Shown here: one piece after another, positions 1-4,315 of the stretch | Numbering within the stretch: position 1 is the stretch's first letter | How the letters are laid out: each line of letters begins with the position of its first letter | DNA from: a plasmid | Assembly (NCBI RefSeq): GCF_056746865.1 | Contig: NZ_JBWKMP010000008.1 | DNA length: 4,315 nt | Strand: one strand, 5' to 3' | Notes under the pieces: generated by a model | What the model was told of the DNA's origin: nothing | What the model saw: the letters and a program-made list of their open reading frames with translations, nothing else | Databases searched by the model: none | Program-made: the position numbers and the translations under genes

Positions 1-170
1 CAGGTATCCGGTAAGCGGCAGGGTCGGAACAGGAGAGCGCACGAGGGAGCTTCCAGGGGGAAACGCCTGGTATCTTTATAGTCCTGTCGGGTTTCGCCAC
101 CTCTGACTTGAGCGTCGATTTTTGTGATGCTCGTCAGGGGGGCGGAGCCTATGGAAAAACGCCAGCGGCG
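1..170 (+). ncRNA. RNAII: 3' part of the ColE1-type RNA II replication primer, ending at the RNA-to-DNA transition (origin) around 160-170; continues from the end of the window across the circular junction
   Basis: Near-identical to the pBR322/pMB1 origin sequence as I remember it (ggtatccggtaagcggcagggtcggaacaggagagcgcacgagggagcttccagggggaaacgcctggtatctttatagtcctgtcgggtttcgccacctctgacttgagcgtcgatttttgtgatgctcgtcaggggggcggagcctatggaaaaacgccagc). Exact origin nucleotide is placed by analogy, not measured. Confidence 0.85.
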
Positions 171-415
171 CGGCCTTTTGTCCTGGCTTTGCCTTTTTGC
201 TCACATGTTCTTTCCGGCCTTATCCCCTGATTCTGTGGATAACTGTGTTACCGTTTTTGTGTGAGTCAGTACCGCTCGCCGCAGCCGAACGACCGAGCGT
301 AGCGAGTCAGTGAGCGAGGAAGCGGAAAAGCGCCTGGACGTGCATTTTCTCCTTACGCATCTGTGCGGCATTTCACACCCGGCATGGGGCACTTTTCATA
401 CAATCTGCACTGATG
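171..415. other. Region downstream of the ColE1 origin, homologous to the pBR322 segment between ori and bom (lagging-strand initiation / primosome assembly area by analogy)
   Basis: Recognisable collinear similarity to pBR322 (ctcacatgttctttcc...ccgctcgccgcagccgaacgaccgagcg.agcgagtcagtgagcgaggaagcgga...ttctccttacgcatctgtgcgg.atttcacacc). Functional sub-sites not resolved. Confidence 0.5.
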
Positions 416-520
416 CCGCATGGTTAAGCCAGTATACACTCCGCTGTCGCTACGCGACTGGGTCAGGGCTTCGCCCCGACACCCGCTGACGCGCCCTGGC
501 GGGCTTGTCTGCTGCCGAAA
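415..520. other. bom / oriT-like site (basis of mobility) of ColE1 type, including the presumed nic region near 421-441
   Basis: ccgcatggttaagccagtatacactccgctgtcgctacgcgactgggtcagggcttcgccccgacacccgctgacgcgccctggcgggcttgtctgc is collinear with the pBR322 bom region lying between ori and rop. No relaxase/mob gene in the window. Confidence 0.7.
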
Positions 521-559
521 ACGCTCGCGGACAAGCCGTGAGCGCCTCCGTCAGCTTCG

Positions 560-754
560 TTATGTTCCTGTTTCACTTTCAGTCTCAAAGCGAACCTGGA
601 TGCTGTTCTGGAGTTCTTCCGCGAGTTCGTGCAGTCGTTCGCACATGGCCGCCTGTTCGTCGGCATCCAGAGCATCCAGTTTTTCAAGCAGTGTCAGGCT
701 CTGGCTTTTGATAAATCGCGCCATATTCAGCGCAGTTTGTTGCTGTTTGTTCAC
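560..754 (-). CDS. rop: Rop/Rom, the RNA I-RNA II pairing modulator protein (64 aa, GTG start)
   Basis: Translation MNKQQQTALNMARFIKSQSLTLLEKLDALDADEQAAMCERLHELAEELQNSIQVRF... aligns by eye with pBR322 Rop (MTKQEKTALNMARFIRSQTLTLLEKLNELDADEQADICESLHDHADELYRSCLARF...). GTG start as in pBR322 rop. GGAG/GGAAG motif just upstream on the - strand. Position and orientation relative to ori match pBR322. Confidence 0.92.
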   Translation of the reverse strand: MNKQQQTALNMARFIKSQSLTLLEKLDALDADEQAAMCERLHELAEELQNSIQVRFETESETGT

Positions 755-880
755 CTTCCGTTGTTCTCCGTCAGTACCGGGTGTCGGGTGGACCCTGACC
801 AGGTGGTAATTGTAAGACGTTGCGGGCGACGGTATTACAATTGCACATCCTGTCCTGTTTTTTTAGGACGTATCATGGCA
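755..880 (-). promoter_or_regulatory. Candidate rop promoter/leader region containing an inverted repeat TAATTGTAA(806-815)...TTACAATT(834-842); TACAAT-like -10 on the - strand
   Basis: Inverted repeat and a TACAAT hexamer read on the - strand. No convincing -35 at canonical spacing, so promoter assignment is tentative. Confidence 0.3.
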
Positions 881-1111
881 CAGCATATCAACTGATAAAT
901 AATCCCTGTGCAGTGCAGCCGCTGTTGCATAAAATTTCGCTCTGCGTCGAGTGTTTCTTAATCAATAATTCCGCTGATACTCCGGAAAAACGCGAGTCTG
1001 TTCTCATGCCTGAAATGCCCACACCCCACGCAAAAACAATTTTTTGCTGATTTTTCTTTATAAATAGAGAGTTATGACAAATTAGTTCTTCTTGCTCTCT
1101 TTGTGATATTT

Positions 1112-1160
1112 AAAAAAGCGGTGTCGGCGCGGTGTTGTAGCTGCGCCAACACCGCTTTTT
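1112..1160. terminator. Strong bidirectional rho-independent terminator: 13-bp stem gcggtgtcggcgc / gcgccaacaccgc with one mismatch, 12-nt loop, A6 upstream and T5 downstream
   Basis: Seen directly: aaaaaa-gcggtgtcggcgc-ggtgttgtagct-gcgccaacaccgc-ttttt. A/T runs on both sides allow termination in either direction. Confidence 0.75.
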
Positions 1161-1275
1161 AGGGGTGGTACTGACTATTTTCATAAAAAACATCATTTTA
1201 TATTAGGGGTGCTGCTAGCGGCGCGGTGTGTTTTTTTACAGGACGCCCCTGGGGGCGCTGCTAGGGGTGTCTGTT
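1160..1275. repeat. Repeat-rich, potentially structured spacer: TAGGGGTG x3 (1161-1168 as aggggtgg, 1204-1210, 1262-1269), GCTGCTAG x2 (1211-1218, 1257-1264), CGGCGCGGTGT x2 (1125-1135, 1219-1229), long-range inverted repeat ctagcggcgc(1215-1224)/gcgctgctag(1255-1264)
   Basis: Words found by reading the sequence. No ORF of 60 aa or more on either strand here. Function unknown. Confidence 0.5.
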
Positions 1276-1289
1276 CAGATATGTAGCAA

Positions 1290-1520
1290 TGAGTCAGGGA
1301 TTCACGAACTGAAAATGTCCGAAAATGTGTCTCATGGGCACCGTATGCGCCCAAACCGATCGCCATTCACTTTCATGCATAGCTATGCAGTGAGCTGAAA
1401 GCGATCCTGACGCATTTTTCCGGTTTTCGCTTGGTAAAACATCTCTTTTTGCGGTGTTCGCGGCAGAATCGCGTTCAGCGCGTTTTAGCGGTGCGCGTAA
1501 TGCGACGTTATGGTAAATGA
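1290..1520. other. cer-like plasmid multimer resolution site: accessory region with ArgR-box-like palindrome (about 1376-1393, atgcatagctatgcagtg) and XerC/XerD core at 1490-1518 (GGTGCGCGTAA-tgcgacg-TTATGGTAAAT)
   Basis: Core arms match the Xer family (dif GGTGCGCATAA / TTATGTTAAAT; ColE1 cer GGTGCGTACAA / TTATGGTAAAT as I recall). Flanking gcgttcagcgcgttttagcggtgcg resembles ColE1 cer. ARG-box-like dyad lies about 110 bp upstream, the expected geometry. Confidence 0.75.
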
Positions 1521-1535
1521 GGCTGTTGAGTTATT

Positions 1536-1564
1536 AATGTTATGTCGTAATGTACGTATATAAT
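1536..1564 (+). promoter_or_regulatory. Candidate sigma70 promoter for the small ORF: consensus -10 TATAAT (1559-1564), weak -35 (ttaatg, 1536-1541)
   Basis: Perfect TATAAT hexamer within gtacgtatataattc. The -35 is weak. Inferred from sequence only. Confidence 0.4.
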
Positions 1565-1650
1565 TCAGGCGAAGATGAGAAAAGATGAATAGATCTGATA
1601 TGAATTACCATGATTACTCATGGACGGCTGTACAAGGAGATAATCCACGA

Positions 1651-1878
1651 ATGACTAAGCTAGATGCCACGCGCTTTAGCCGTCATGAGGGTTATGAGGT
1701 GTTAGATTTGATTAATTCCTTCCAGGCCAAAGGGGGTGGTGCTCTGACGCTAAAATCACAGCAGATTATCGAGTGGATGCTACATGAACGCCTGCCATCC
1801 AATATCCAGGGGCGAGCTCAGGTTAAAGCGTGGGTGGTTGATAACTTCTCGCAAATGAAGGATGGTTATCCATTCTGA
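1651..1878 (+). CDS. Small hypothetical protein (75 aa from ATG 1651; the in-frame ORF extends to ATG 1585, giving 97 aa), function unknown
   Basis: Strong Shine-Dalgarno AAGGAGA (1634-1640) 10 nt before ATG 1651. Clean intrinsic terminator immediately downstream. I do not recognise the family and see no obvious helix-turn-helix signature. The longer 1585 start has a weaker RBS. Confidence 0.55.
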   Translation: MTKLDATRFSRHEGYEVLDLINSFQAKGGGALTLKSQQIIEWMLHERLPSNIQGRAQVKAWVVDNFSQMKDGYPF

Positions 1879-1879
1879 T

Positions 1880-1906
1880 AAAAAGCCCGCTACAGCGGGC
1901 TTTTTC
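1880..1906 (+). terminator. Rho-independent terminator after the small ORF: stem agcccgc / gcgggct, loop taca, T-run; A-run upstream
   Basis: Seen directly: aaaaa-agcccgc-taca-gcgggct-tttt(t), starting 2 nt after the stop codon. Confidence 0.8.
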
Positions 1907-2015
1907 ATGAGCTGTGCTCAATGAGGCATTATGGTAAATTGTTATGGAGTGGGCATGTCTGTATATGATGCCTGGTGGTATGATTTTGTTTGTAACACTG
2001 GAAGGTTGTTGGAAT
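1907..2015 (+). promoter_or_regulatory. Upstream region of the endonuclease gene, containing TTATGGTAAAT (1929-1939; identical to the cer XerD arm, and readable as an extended -10 TGgTAAATT) and RBS GGAAGG (2000-2005)
   Basis: Sequence reading only. The promoter is not experimentally defined. Confidence 0.35.
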
Positions 2016-2939
2016 ATGGATTTAACAAATATTGAATTTATTAATGATGCCGCAATAAATAGGAGGCGTTACTGGACTAATGAAATTGTCAAATTAAGTG
2101 GGCATTTTGTTAATGACTCCAGTAGGGTTGAGGAGGAAATTATTTATGAAGTTTCCAAATCTGGATCTCAGGCTTTATTGGACCACCTTCGATTATGCAC
2201 AGCCATTCCTGAATCATATGAGCATGATTCAAGCGAAGAAAAGTTATATTCAAAGTATACAGACGCATTGATTTCTGAATGTTTTAAGTTTTTTGGTTTG
2301 AATAGCATTGTGTTAACTGAGAGGGCTGATGCGGCAGATGTAGAAGTTGTATGTGATAGTTATTCTTTTGTTGCTGATGCTAAAGTTTTTCGGTTAAGTC
2401 GAACAGCTAAAAATCAGAAAGATTTTAAAGTTCAAGCAATGGATGGTTGGAGGAATACTAAAGATTTCGCCATGGTTGTTTGTCCAATATATCAGCTTCC
2501 AGTTAAATCAAGTCAAATATATCAACAAGCTATTCTTCGCAATGTGTGTGTGTTTACTTATACTCATTTAGCTGTTCTGGTAAAGTATGCTGACATTGTT
2601 GGTAGTGATGTTAGGATATTGTTAGAGGAAATATTCAGATCTGTCATACTCATGAATCCAAGTAAGGATAGTGTGCAGTACTGGACTATGATTAATAGAA
2701 CGATGTTGAATTATGATAAGAGAATAGAAAAACTTTGGATTGATGAGCGAATTGCTACATCAGAGGGTATCTATGTGCTGAAAAAGATGGCAATAGAATA
2801 CCTCTCTTCCGAGAGAGGTAGAATTCTAAGCATGAGCAGAGAAGAGGCTGTAAGAGCTTTGATTAAAATGAATAAAATTGAAAGTAGAATTGAGCAGATT
2901 AAAAAAGTGACAGATAATAATATTCTGTCACTTAAATAA
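2016..2939 (+). CDS. Type II restriction endonuclease, HindIII family (predicted AAGCTT specificity); 307 aa from ATG 2016, with the open frame extending upstream to 1944
   Basis: Translation contains ...SFVADAKVFRLSRTAKNQKDFKVQAMDGWR..., which matches my memory of the HindIII catalytic region (ADAKSFRLSRTAKNQKDFKV, PD-D/ExK active site), plus further collinear similarity (EEKLYSK..., SREEAVRALIK...). Length is close to HindIII (300 aa). Start at 2016 is preferred because the 24 upstream codons look non-native. This would correspond to the EcoVIII-type enzyme if my recollection of pEC156 is right (unverified). Confidence 0.88.
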   Translation: MDLTNIEFINDAAINRRRYWTNEIVKLSGHFVNDSSRVEEEIIYEVSKSGSQALLDHLRLCTAIPESYEHDSSEEKLYSKYTDALISECFKFFGLNSIVLTERADAADVEVVCDSYSFVADAKVFRLSRTAKNQKDFKVQAMDGWRNTKDFAMVVCPIYQLPVKSSQIYQQAILRNVCVFTYTHLAVLVKYADIVGSDVRILLEEIFRSVILMNPSKDSVQYWTMINRTMLNYDKRIEKLWIDERIATSEGIYVLKKMAIEYLSSERGRILSMSREEAVRALIKMNKIESRIEQIKKVTDNNILSLK

Positions 2940-3854
2940 TTATTTGTTTAATCTCTTTATACTGGTCTCTACATATGTAGGGTTTATTTCGAAACCAATA
3001 TAATCCCTACCTAAATCTTTCGCTGCTACCAATGTAGAACCACTGCCACTAAAAGGGTCAATGACTAATTGACCTTTTTGTGTTGTTAATTCTATAAGTG
3101 TTTTCATTAAGGCTACAGGTTTTTGTGTTGGGTGTAATCCACTTTCATTGCTGGAAAATCCAGCTGTAATGACATTTTCAGGTTTGCCATTTCTTGCTAC
3201 AAATGCATCTTGATTATAAGCACCGACACCATGAATAATTGCATTATCTGCAATTGTGCCGCCAATTTTATATGGTTTAGAGAACCATAGTATGGGTTCA
3301 AAGGTTGGTTGTAGATTTCCAACTCGCCATCCATTCCATTTTTCTGCGTTTAATGTATCCCCGCGCCTTTCGTAAACGCAACTCAACCTTTGGGCTCTGT
3401 GAGGGGCTTTTACTCTCATCCATGCAATTATATCGCGAAGATTGAATCCAGCATCTTCCATTGCACATATGCATCGATGAGAAAATCTTCTGCCTGCAAA
3501 AATAATTGCACTGGCACCTGGTTTTAATACTCTGAACCATTCAGTAGCCCATTCTTCACACCATTGCTGATATTCTAATGGTATTTTCTTATCAGCCTCT
3601 GACCATCCATTTATTGGTTTTCCTCTTTTTTTAAAAATAGCACCTGCGTTTTTCTGCGCAGGGCTTGAACCTAGGTATGCGTTATTTGAGTTATTATGTA
3701 GCACATCCCAGTCTTCTGCTCCTATCCCATAAGGGATATCACTGAGTATTAAATGTGCATATTGTGATGGGAGTTTTTTTATTAATGATATCGAGTTACC
3801 ATTGGTAACGGTATTCTTTTTTATTTCATCAGGTAATTGGATCTTGTTTAACAT
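2940..3854 (-). CDS. DNA methyltransferase, beta-class (motif IV near the N-terminus, motif I near the C-terminus), amino-methyltransferase (N6-adenine by analogy to M.HindIII); 304 aa
   Basis: Motifs seen in the translation: LILSDIPYG (motif IV, DPPY-like), HPTQKP, VIDPFSGSGSTLVAA (FxGxG AdoMet-binding motif I). RBS AGGAA upstream of ATG at 3854 on the - strand. Convergent partner of the HindIII-like endonuclease. Confidence 0.9.
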   Translation of the reverse strand: MLNKIQLPDEIKKNTVTNGNSISLIKKLPSQYAHLILSDIPYGIGAEDWDVLHNNSNNAYLGSSPAQKNAGAIFKKRGKPINGWSEADKKIPLEYQQWCEEWATEWFRVLKPGASAIIFAGRRFSHRCICAMEDAGFNLRDIIAWMRVKAPHRAQRLSCVYERRGDTLNAEKWNGWRVGNLQPTFEPILWFSKPYKIGGTIADNAIIHGVGAYNQDAFVARNGKPENVITAGFSSNESGLHPTQKPVALMKTLIELTTQKGQLVIDPFSGSGSTLVAAKDLGRDYIGFEINPTYVETSIKRLNK

Positions 3855-3912
3855 CTAAATTCCTGCTCTTTCATAGCTTTAAAAACACGCTGATAGTATA
3901 CGTTAAAGTACC
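3855..3912 (-). promoter_or_regulatory. Candidate promoter/leader of the methyltransferase gene (-10-like TATACT, + strand 3895-3900), immediately adjacent to the RNA I terminator and RNA II promoter
   Basis: TATACT hexamer read on the - strand. No convincing -35. Placement is inferred. Confidence 0.3.
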
Positions 3913-3948
3913 TTGACGCAGGATTACCTTTCATCGTAGCCTTTCTGA
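3913..3948 (+). promoter_or_regulatory. RNA II promoter (-35 TTGACG 3913-3918; -10 candidate TAGCCT about 3937-3942)
   Basis: Position equivalent to the pBR322 RNA II promoter just upstream of the aaaaaacc...RNA I terminator sequence. The -10 assignment is approximate. Confidence 0.55.
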
Positions 3949-4053
3949 AAAGAAAAAACCGCCTTGCAGGGCGGTTTTTTCAAGGTTCAAAGAACTTGCA
4001 GGTTTTTGAACCACGGTAACTGGCTTTGTGGGAGCGCAGTCACCAAAATCTGT
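3949..4053 (-). ncRNA. RNAI: RNA I, the antisense copy-number control RNA (about 105 nt), complementary to the 5' end of RNA II
   Basis: 5' end placed by analogy with pBR322 RNA I (acagtatttggtatctgcgc... corresponds here to the reverse complement of gcgcagtcaccaaaatctgt). 3' end at the shared terminator hairpin. Confidence 0.8.
3953..3980 (-). terminator. RNA I terminator hairpin (aaaaaa-ccgcc-ttgcag-ggcgg-tttttt), which also forms the 5' stem-loop of RNA II
   Basis: Seen directly; equivalent to the pBR322 aaaaaaaccaccgctaccagcggtggtttgttt element. Confidence 0.8.
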
Positions 4054-4057
4054 TCTT

Positions 4058-4092
4058 TCAGTTTAGCCTTAACTGGCAAGAAACTTCAAGAC
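4058..4092 (-). promoter_or_regulatory. RNA I promoter (on the - strand: -35 TTGAAG = + strand 4084-4089; -10 CTAAAC = + strand 4061-4066)
   Basis: Same arrangement and near-identical hexamers to the pBR322 RNA I promoter as I recall it (TTGAAG...17 bp...CTACAC). Confidence 0.6.
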
Positions 4093-4315
4093 CAACTCCC
4101 ATAAAACCGTTACCAGTGGCTGCTGCCAGTGGCGTTAAGGCGTGTCTTACCGGGTTGGACTCAAGACGATAGTTACCGGATAAGGCGCAGCGGTCGGGCT
4201 GAACGGGGGGTTCGTGCACACAGCCCAGCTTGGAGCGAACGACCTACACCGAACTGAGATACCAACAGCGTGAGCTATGAGAAAGCGCCACGCTTCCCGA
4301 AGGGAGAAAGGCGGA

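Follow-up and report, generated by a model that had tools for sequence, protein, structure and literature searches.

A pEC156/EcoVIII-type plasmid record of 4,315 bp read across its end junction

Introduction

ColE1-type replicons encode no plasmid Rep initiator and need the DNA polymerase I and RNase H of the host, and the ColE1 bom site (a MOB-HEN oriT) requires MbeA-D in trans. Among plasmids of this type, pEC156 has been studied experimentally since 2001. It is a 4312-bp ColE1-type, EcoVIII-bearing plasmid of Escherichia coli E1585-68 (AF158026; PMC4743918). EcoVIII recognizes AAGCTT (PMC4743918, PMC5974420), and both the R64-type and the F-type oriT of pEC156 have been shown to be functional (PMC4743918). 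Function has also been shown for its cer site (PMC4743918, PMC5573283), and the cer-minus derivative pRB1 forms multimers and is unstable in a hyper-rec host (PMC5573283).

Here, we analyze a 4,315-nt stretch of plasmid DNA (hereafter, the window), which belongs to the known pEC156/EcoVIII type and is, in that respect, ordinary. Almost certainly, the window is the complete monomer of a natural plasmid that resembles pEC156, a ColE1-type replicon with theta replication and a high copy number, linearized arbitrarily inside the RNA II gene.

Relationship to pEC156 and to plasmids of the same length

The window was judged against pEC156 by the published descriptions of that plasmid and by the backbone of pEC886, which is the same plasmid with an additional 4.9-kb transposon. 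As described, pEC156 shares RNA I/II, ori, rom, and cer with the window and, like it, carries F-type and R64-type oriT, convergent ecoVIIIR and ecoVIIIM, and no mob genes (PMC4743918). Published pEC156 primers match the window, engineered sites excepted, the NheI site is unique in both plasmids, and the HpaI-EcoRV fragment measures 1475 bp in the window vs the published 1.48 kb. Rare codons AGG16-17 in R and AGA122-123 in M are found as published for EcoVIII (PMC6456624; for M also PMC5974420). The window is 4315 bp long and pEC156 4312 bp; the pEC886 backbone (4312 bp, numbered as pEC156) is 99.86 per cent identical to the window, with 3 SNPs and three 1-nt indels between the two. In pEC886, R is annotated as a protein of 324 aa.

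Eight circular 4315-bp plasmids in public records, among them pSL26_ColRNAI (NZ_CP032493), pRHBSTW-00204_4 (CP056658), pKOr019_4 (NZ_CP091669), and pXJPTE1-3 (NZ_CP176789), have the length and order of the window; none is identical to it in sequence, and they are opened elsewhere. Their hosts are E. coli and Salmonella, and their countries of origin are Mexico, the UK, Japan, China, and the USA. Annotation of these records is uneven: R is given a length of either 307 or 331 aa, the small ORF one of 75 or 97 aa, and some records leave M out.

Evidence for circular closure of the window

Fusing the two termini of the window gives the 52-mer CGCTTCCCGAAGGGAGAAAGGCGGA/CAGGTATCCGGTAAGCGGCAGGGTCGG, an exact match, which we take to be contiguous pBR322/pMB1 RNA II sequence. 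The two ends share no terminal overlap or duplication. With ColE1 (NC_001371) as the reference origin for alignments, ColE1 832..1803 aligns as one block with window 4109..4315 continued into 1..754 (88 per cent identity over 976 columns), and identity to ColE1 is 99 per cent over the 340 nt that have the junction at their center (window 4138..162). A 201-nt query across the junction matches 1762 plasmid records in one unbroken piece, 628 of them at an identity of at least 99 per cent. When rotated, the eight circular 4315-bp records coincide with the window at exact length, apart from 2–7 substitutions each; they are opened at seven differing start points, and a 120-nt junction sequence lies unbroken inside each of them. 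From the window's own sequence and these near-identical records, we infer that the molecule is a closed circle. The preliminary description had read the window as a whole circular ColE1-type plasmid and had proposed alignment to a ColE1-type origin as a check, and both the rotations and the unbroken alignment bear this out. It had also proposed looking for reads that span 4315 to 1; here, the eight independent circular assemblies of equal length, opened at differing points, fulfill that role.

Related sequence does occur in larger molecules: an 87-kb IncF plasmid carries a related ori and restriction-modification (R-M) segment (87.5 per cent identity over 62 per cent of the window), pEC886 is the same plasmid enlarged by its transposon, and E. 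coli chromosomes yield 298 partial matches. Nevertheless, it is very improbable that the window is a copy that sat in a larger replicon (chromosome, cointegrate, or large plasmid) or was cut out of one in silico, with ends that match by coincidence. The ends join base-perfectly, with neither overlap nor gap, into sequence 99 per cent identical to ColE1; eight independent circular records have the same length; and all matches covering at least 80 per cent of the window are on plasmid records, with none on chromosomes. Least probable of all is an assembly or laboratory artifact, whether a mis-circularized contig that lost or duplicated bases at the join or contaminating DNA from a cloning vector based on pMB1/ColE1. 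Around the junction, the sequence is indeed identical to the origin part common to usual vectors, and the older sequences of pEC886 and pEC156, at 4312 bp, fall 3 nt short of the window (PMC4743918). However, vector markers are absent, the only ORFs are rop, a 97-aa gene, R, and M, and RNA I and the RNA II 5′ region are strongly diverged from ColE1. The three 1-nt pEC886 differences, at 4296, 167, and 185, occur where the ori region has G/C-rich runs and lie away from the join, and all eight modern 4315-bp assemblies agree with the window there.

Replication region

For a complete ColE1-type monomer opened inside RNA II, the replication functions are read across the junction as follows.

3913..3942, plus strand: putative RNA II promoter P2 (-35 TTGACG at 3913-3918, 18-nt spacer, -10 TAGCCT at 3937-3942)
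3947..4315, plus strand: RNA II pre-primer, 5′ part (start at ~3947 ± 3, by ColE1 alignment; -265 G-run at 4205-4210)
1..159, plus strand: RNA II pre-primer, 3′ part (-20 G-run at 136-141; 99 per cent identity to ColE1 1039-1197)
3950..4051, minus strand: RNA I, antisense copy-number regulator with three stem-loops, complementary to the RNA II 5′ end (Rfam RF00106)
4060..4089, minus strand: putative RNA I promoter P1 (-35 TTGAAG at 4089-4084, -10 TAAACT at 4065-4060)
560..754, minus strand: rop (rom), 64 aa (Pfam PF01815 Rop, E = 8e-35, 1-57 of 57; one copy)

RNA I matches the full-length RF00106 model in one copy (85.8 bits vs a gathering score of 47; E = 1.5e-15), and rop is annotated as Rop across all related records. 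In ColE1, RNA II starts at 641 and ori lies at 1196, a distance of 555 nt. The G-runs and the A-run of the window's RNA II are identical to those of ColE1 in a contiguous alignment to ColE1 641-1196, and the RNA-to-DNA transition (ori) falls on the A-run at 155-159; because of a 25-nt deletion after 4093 relative to ColE1, RNA II is only ~527 nt long in the window. Linearization cuts it after ~369 of these ~527 nt, with the -265 G-run before the junction and the -20 G-run after it. RNA II thus runs from ~3947 through 4315 into 1 and on to ori, in agreement with the preliminary description, which had placed the opening inside RNA II and advised that features at either end be read across the junction.

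A consensus promoter scan (9 found vs a shuffle expectation of 9.0) missed both replication promoters; P1 and P2 were instead located by alignment. P2 was positioned on ColE1 P2 (TTGAGA/TAATCT) and falls outside the backbone common to sibling plasmids; its presumed -10 hexamer, TAGCCT, is weak. The sequence upstream of the RNA I 5′ end suggests P1, by analogy to P1 of ColE1/pMB1.

Neither the ORF list nor a Pfam search of the window revealed a Rep-family ORF. RefSeq annotates a 53-aa 'replication initiation protein' at 4058-4219, which is without a Pfam match and, lying inside RNA II, is probably a spurious call. We also rejected an ORF spanning the junction: one frame is open for 122 codons, of which the first start leaves 24 aa, the other frames give at most 46 aa, and no ORF with a start codon and more than 46 aa crosses the junction. 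By its sequence features, the replicon is of ColE1 type (ColRNAI), with RNA I, RNA II/ori, and Rop, the last being optional in the family.

By analogy to ColE1, RNA II would be transcribed from ~3947 and read through 4315 into 1, would form a persistent hybrid with its template through the -265 and -20 G-runs, and would be cut by RNase H at the A-run 155-159 to provide a primer for DNA polymerase I. RNA I, from the opposite strand, and Rop would hold back priming and fix the copy number.

Transfer origins

323..510, minus strand: ColE1-type bom (oriT) with nic sequence (~96 per cent identity to ColE1 1360-1521; one copy)
775..862, plus strand: R64 (IncI1)-type oriT (inverted repeat at 808-843, ATCCTG nick motif at 848-853)
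1019..1269, plus strand: F (IncFI)-type oriT (nic-complement CCACACCCCACGC at 1019-1031; TraM/TraY/IHF binding region)

The bom 13-mer TAAGCCAGTATAC at 425-437 is identical to ColE1 1462-1474, and the nick presumably lies within GTATACTGG/CTTA. The R64-type (MOBP) oriT is 86 per cent identical over 91 nt to R64 66946-67036, directly upstream of nikA (E = 4e-24); at 832-862, 30 of 31 nt match R64, and the putative NikA-binding inverted repeat is followed by the ATCCTG nick region, as in IncI1 origins. Over 252 nt, the F-type (MOBF) oriT has 90 per cent identity to the part of F that precedes traM (66155-66405; E = 2e-93). Judged by these similarities, the window has three transfer-origin loci. 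No mbe genes were found in the window (ORF list and Pfam search), which has no relaxase gene; transfer would depend on helpers acting on the bom, R64-type, and F-type origins.

cer-type site and a second Xer core-like site

~1300..1518, plus strand: cer-type multimer resolution site (left limit approximate; accessory region and core at 1490-1518)
1911..1939, plus strand: second Xer core-like site (GCTGTGCTCAA-TGAGGCA-TTATGGTAAAT; a direct repeat relative to the cer core)

A cer core was defined as an 11-nt XerC arm, a 6–8-nt center, and an 11-nt XerD arm, and the accessory region as the ~180 nt that precede the XerC arm, including an ArgR box ~100 nt from it. The window has such a core at 1490-1518, GGTGCGCGTAA-TGCGACG-TTATGGTAAAT, which aligns to ColE1 GGTGCGTACAA-TTAAGGGA-TTATGGTAAAT. 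A perfect ArgR-box-like palindrome, TGCATAGCTATGCA (1376-1389), aligns to the ColE1 box at a distance of ~107 nt vs 106 nt. It scores below 14/18 against the ARG-box consensus, and accessory identity to ColE1 is only ~46 per cent; a strict consensus scan of the cer region found no match of at least 14/18, so that the box is identified only by the ColE1 alignment. At this site (~1300-1518), XerCD, ArgR, and PepA of the host would resolve multimers.

The second core, detected in a repeat search, is 78 per cent identical to the cer core over 27 nt, in register, with an exact XerD arm. The claim that every backbone function is present exactly once therefore holds for RNA I, rop, ori, and bom and fails for the transfer origins and the Xer core-like sites, the latter comprising one full cer site and one additional core-like site.

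EcoVIII genes

2016..2939, plus strand: ecoVIIIR, HindIII-family Type II restriction endonuclease, 307 aa (Pfam RE_HindIII, PF09518, 4.8e-101)
2940..3854, minus strand: ecoVIIIM, beta-class N6-adenine DNA methyltransferase, 304 aa (Pfam N6_N4_Mtase, PF01555, 5.3e-49)

PADLOC assigns ecoVIIIR to REase_II (4.7e-174; residues 25-331 of the long ORF), and the position of AGG16-AGG17 fixes its start (PMC6456624). The convergent, abutting ecoVIIIM matches MTase_II of PADLOC and has motif IV (DIPY, residue 39) ahead of motif I (FSGSGS, residue 268). On sequence grounds, the pair is a HindIII-family Type IIP endonuclease with a beta-class N6-adenine methyltransferase, which would serve phage defense and post-segregational killing (2016-3854). 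Avoidance of AAGCTT was considered and rejected: the window contains 0 sites, and this absence is uninformative because only 1.27 are expected.

Proposed exchange of cargo at Xer arms

The R-M genes have a GC content of 0.36 vs 0.515 in the backbone. Two ColRNAI siblings, of 3257 bp (with HigBA) and 4715 bp (with AbiEii/PP2C), share the window backbone from 3933/3942 to 1519/1525 at 96–98 per cent identity and carry different cargo from the cer XerD arm to the start of RNA II; homology with siblings carrying other cargo stops exactly at the XerD arm. A 5719-bp mob+ EcoVIII plasmid has window 1468..754 in common (97 per cent), ColE1 mbe genes in place of window 755-1467, and a transition inside the XerC arm, where ColE1-like sequence gives way to window-like sequence. 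On other small plasmids, related R-M alleles, with ~77 per cent DNA identity, lie directly downstream of a single Xer site. Low-GC cargo may thus have been swapped into a conserved backbone via Xer-site recombination, and cargo edges that fall exactly on Xer arms support the published evolution of ColE1 plasmids by recombination at cer.

The 97-aa gene and its Xer-bounded segment

1585..1878, plus strand: conserved 97-aa gene between cer and the R-M genes, function unassigned
1884-1905: terminator hairpin after the 97-aa gene, seen in Rfam alignments

The single cargo module of the preliminary description resolves into two units, namely the EcoVIII R-M pair and the 97-aa gene in a 421-bp Xer-bounded segment; that inventory was incomplete rather than wrong. 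The 97-aa protein has 39 homologs with full-length coverage and invariant N-terminal residues. It matches no family in Pfam, NCBIfam, or PADLOC, its confident AF2 model (pLDDT 86.8) has no fold match in PDB (best E = 3.6), and its gene has no constant neighbor in Kosakonia, Aeromonas, and Roseateles. Weak Rfam matches at ~1798-1908 (rsmX, Trp leader, and isrK), all below the gathering score, were rejected; the intrinsic terminator hairpin after the gene accounts for them.

The second Xer core is kept together with the 97-aa ORF in two other records (L027 and L028), where homology stops at the second XerD arm; in an unrelated context, the gene has both flanking cores, with homology ending exactly at that arm. 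Related R-M plasmids have just one Xer core at the corresponding place. The gene thus looks like an Xer-bounded module, which is the only, mildly, new point of our analysis. Tentatively, and with considerable doubt, the 421 bp at 1519-1939, with the gene, its terminator, and the second core, may be a discrete Xer-mobilized cassette of enterobacterial ColE1-type plasmids that encodes a plasmid-benefit or defense-associated factor. Such a cassette would enter and exit at cer by XerCD recombination between the directly repeated cores, in loose analogy to the pdif modules of Acinetobacter.

Implications for annotation and comparison with known systems

Because linearization splits RNA II, a linear reading would miss or truncate the functional unit of the origin, and the record should be treated as a circle for annotation. 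The element is otherwise a textbook-type replicon, near-identical in at least eight public assemblies from four continents, and a clean example of cargo boundaries on Xer arms. Its public annotation is inconsistent, with three R starts, a shortened call of the 97-aa gene, and the 'replication initiation protein' inside RNA II.

Relative to ColE1 (NC_001371), the origin, bom, and rop are collinear, and the cer core and the position of the ArgR box are conserved. The window differs from ColE1 in having no mbe, colicin, immunity, or lysis genes, in the strongly diverged RNA I and RNA II 5′ region with its 25-nt deletion, in a cer center of 7 nt instead of 8, and in the additional F-type and R64-type oriT. 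With HindIII and LlaCI, it has in common an RE_HindIII endonuclease and a beta-class N6-adenine methyltransferase, whereas the pair in the window is plasmid-borne and found in Enterobacteriaceae.

Circularity of the plasmid

When the last and first bases of the window are joined, they give exactly the 52-mer quoted in the preliminary description, and the ends carry no terminal overlap of 8-199 nt, the sign of a mis-trimmed circular contig. ColE1 (NC_001371), our reference origin standing in for pBR322/pMB1, gives one alignment block with the doubled window, and this block crosses the junction of the two ends (4109..4315|1..754 corresponds to ColE1 832..1803, with 88 per cent identity over 976 columns), and in a global alignment the ~340 nt around the junction (4138..162) are 99 per cent identical to ColE1. 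A 201-nt query across the junction finds contiguous matches in 1762 PLSDB records, 628 of them at no less than 99 per cent identity. Eight public records that were deposited as circular have exactly the length of the window, 4315 bp (five from PLSDB and three from RefSeq complete E. coli genomes). Each corresponds to the window, rotated or reverse-complemented, and departs from it by only 2-7 substitutions; their start points differ, and the 120-nt junction is unbroken in all eight. The single-block ColE1 alignment, the contiguous PLSDB matches and the eight circles show that the join is real plasmid sequence. No meaningful open reading frame was found across it.

The base-perfect join, the alignment over the junction and the same-length circles thus bear out the proposal that the window is a whole circular ColE1-type plasmid. 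Integration in a larger replicon is very unlikely, given the join, the eight circles of one length and the lack of a near-full-length chromosomal copy: among 5426 complete E. coli genomes, all places covering at least 80 per cent of the window lie on plasmid records. The join and the circles, together with the absence of vector markers, make an assembly or vector artefact very unlikely as well. Separately, an 87-kb IncF mcr-3.5 plasmid (NZ_CP064016, 5562-15435) holds a diverged (87.5 per cent) segment with a ColE1 origin and a HindIII-family restriction-modification (R-M) system adjoining IS26, which shows that large resistance plasmids can capture a small plasmid of this kind.

The preliminary inventory, with each backbone function present once and a single cargo module, stands as far as it goes, but three additions are called for: two further oriT, another Xer core and the conserved gene for a 97-aa protein.

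Features of the plasmid, in window coordinates
136-141: RNA II G-run at -20
~323-510: ColE1-type bom, ~96 per cent identical to ColE1, nic 13-mer unchanged
560-754, minus strand: rop (Pfam, 8e-35)
775-862: R64-type oriT, 86 per cent of 91 nt; R64 counterpart directly upstream of nikA
1019-1269: F-type oriT, 90 per cent of 252 nt; F counterpart upstream of traM
1490-1518: cer core, GGTGCGCGTAA-TGCGACG-TTATGGTAAAT
1585-1878: 97-aa ORF between cer and ecoVIIIR, with its own terminator
1911-1939: second Xer core-like site, direct orientation, 421 nt after the cer core, GCTGTGCTCAA-TGAGGCA-TTATGGTAAAT
2016-2939: ecoVIIIR, 307 aa
2940-3854, minus strand: ecoVIIIM, 304 aa
3913-3918 and 3937-3942: RNA II promoter, TTGACG and TAGCCT, placed by alignment to ColE1
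~3947 through 4315|1 to the A-run at 155-159: RNA II, by alignment to ColE1
3950-4051, minus strand: RNA I (Rfam, 85.8 bits against a gathering score of 47)
4205-4210: RNA II G-run at -265

Replication and copy control

As had been proposed, the plasmid is cut inside RNA II: the -265 G-run precedes the junction and the -20 G-run follows it, and the functional origin is therefore split by linearisation. In ColE1, the RNA II +1 (641) and the A-run of the origin (1193-1197) are 555 nt apart; RNA II of the window is ~527 nt long, shortened relative to ColE1 by a 25-nt deletion after 4093. By analogy with ColE1, replication would be primed through RNA II, RNase H and Pol I, and RNA I and Rop would control copy number. 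The RNA I loops are diverged and probably confer an incompatibility specificity differing from that of ColE1.

RefSeq places a 53-aa 'replication initiation protein' (WP_071779772.1) at 4058-4219 on the minus strand, within and antisense to RNA II. Since this frame has no Pfam match and replicons of the ColE1 kind work without a Rep protein, the label is probably a propagated mis-annotation.

Transfer origins

The R64-type and F-type oriT, both absent from the preliminary list, were confirmed against reference R64 and F sequence. In the published plasmid pEC156, both types are functional (PMC4743918), and the plasmid is mobilised by F and R64 (PMC4743918, PMC5573283). For the ColE1 bom to be used, Mbe proteins would have to be provided in trans. 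A 24-nt stretch of bom, GGTCAGGGCTTCGCCCCGACACCC (461-484), is identical to part of R64 oriT and has an imperfect, inverted counterpart at 779-800, within the window's own R64-type oriT; rop therefore lies between two copies of the element in opposite orientation.

Xer sites and the 97-aa gene

Upstream of the cer core lies a perfect palindrome, TGCATAGCTATGCA (1376-1389). In alignment it coincides with the ArgR box of ColE1, and its distance from the XerC arm is about that of the ColE1 box; over the rest of the accessory region, identity to ColE1 is only ~46 per cent. Multimer resolution of pEC156 depends on cer (PMC4743918, PMC5573283). By our own arithmetic, an exact copy of the 11-mer TTATGGTAAAT, as found in the second core, is expected by chance ~0.002 times in a sequence of the window's size.

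The two directly repeated cores (1490-1518, 1911-1939) bracket the 97-aa gene, which is situated just upstream of the endonuclease promoter fragment (1814-2109). Judged by its conservation, this ORF is a real gene: 39 homologues have full-length coverage, and residues Y8, Y11, S12, W13 and D19, all of which precede the start used in RefSeq, are invariant among them. RefSeq calls the gene at 75 aa (WP_015059041.1), and some records leave it out. Because homologues from Kosakonia, Aeromonas and Roseateles keep the residues upstream of the 75-aa start, comparison favours the 97-aa reading as the conserved one. Neither Pfam nor NCBIfam nor PADLOC assigns the protein to a family; its AF2 model is confident (three helices, pLDDT 86.8) and has no fold match in the PDB.

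Homologues elsewhere have no constant genomic neighbour. A chromosomal one on a Kosakonia contig (L020) adjoins paired genes for a protein kinase and a PP2C, with an integrase alongside, and a plasmid with the same backbone as the window (L013, NZ_CP139128) carries AbiEii-family and PP2C-phosphatase cargo; the shared PP2C may reflect coincidence or a defence-island association.

In two unrelated contigs (L027, 2884-3390; L028, 933-1439), an 87 per cent identical homologue of the gene lies in the same core-gene-terminator-core layout, and the second XerD arm marks precisely where homology to the window stops. The recurrence suggests that the gene is an Xer-bounded module, a description not found in the accessible pEC156 papers. 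Related HindIII-family R-M plasmids have one Xer core, ~115 nt upstream of the endonuclease gene.

Mosaic structure and R-M cargo

Two ColRNAI plasmids with other cargo, of 3257 bp (HigBA) and 4715 bp (AbiEii/PP2C), share 3933/3942..1519/1525 with the window at 96-98 per cent identity, and their homology ends exactly after the cer XerD arm and restarts at the 5' end of RNA II. A 5719-bp plasmid with ColE1 mbe genes has 1468..754 in common with the window; inside the XerC arm, its sequence stops resembling ColE1 and begins to resemble the window. The mosaic agrees with a published model in which ColE1 plasmids evolve through recombination at Xer and oriT sites (Tran 2012 and Zakharova 2002, cited in PMC8683028 and PMC6764390), and the principle of such exchange is thus already known. 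The cargo would have been acquired through Xer recombination. The RNA II promoter, with its weak -10 hexamer TAGCCT, lies in a region (3855-3946) outside the segment common to these backbones, where it stands back-to-back with the sequence upstream of ecoVIIIM, so the cargo swap also replaced the promoter of the replication primer.

ecoVIIIR and ecoVIIIM are convergent and abutting, with a GC content of 0.36 versus 0.515 for the backbone. Public records give the endonuclease (1944-2939) three starts, for proteins of 331, 324 or 307 aa. The PADLOC profile, together with the positions published for AGG16-AGG17, fixes the start at 2016 (307 aa). Stabilisation of pEC156 depends on EcoVIII (PMC4743918, PMC5573283).

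Comparison with pEC156

pEC156 (AF158026, 4312 bp, from E. coli E1585-68) is a ColE1-type replicon that carries RNA I, RNA II, rom, cer and the EcoVIII R-M genes, has two transfer origins dependent on helpers, and lacks mob genes (PMC4743918). We judged likeness to it from its published features and from the pEC886 backbone. The window has a single NheI site (1214) and an HpaI-EcoRV fragment of 1475 bp (1.48 kb published); both ecoVIIIR::lacZ primers match, engineered sites excepted, at 1814 and 2109, and AGG codons 16-17 of the endonuclease and AGA codons 122-123 of the methyltransferase are also present (PMC6456624).

pEC886 (NC_019079) is the same plasmid interrupted at window 902/903, where a blaTEM-2 transposon of 4949 bp (4001-8949) separates the R64-type from the F-type oriT and no 5-bp duplication of the target can be seen. 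Apart from the transposon, pEC886 has 4312 bp; relative to the window it shows 3 SNPs and lacks one nucleotide at each of 4296, 167 and 185, positions where the window agrees with all eight modern assemblies. Sequence comparison shows every part of the plasmid to be there and intact, in an order collinear with ColE1, F, R64 and pEC156. On these likenesses, we assign the plasmid to the pEC156 type, an element already known.
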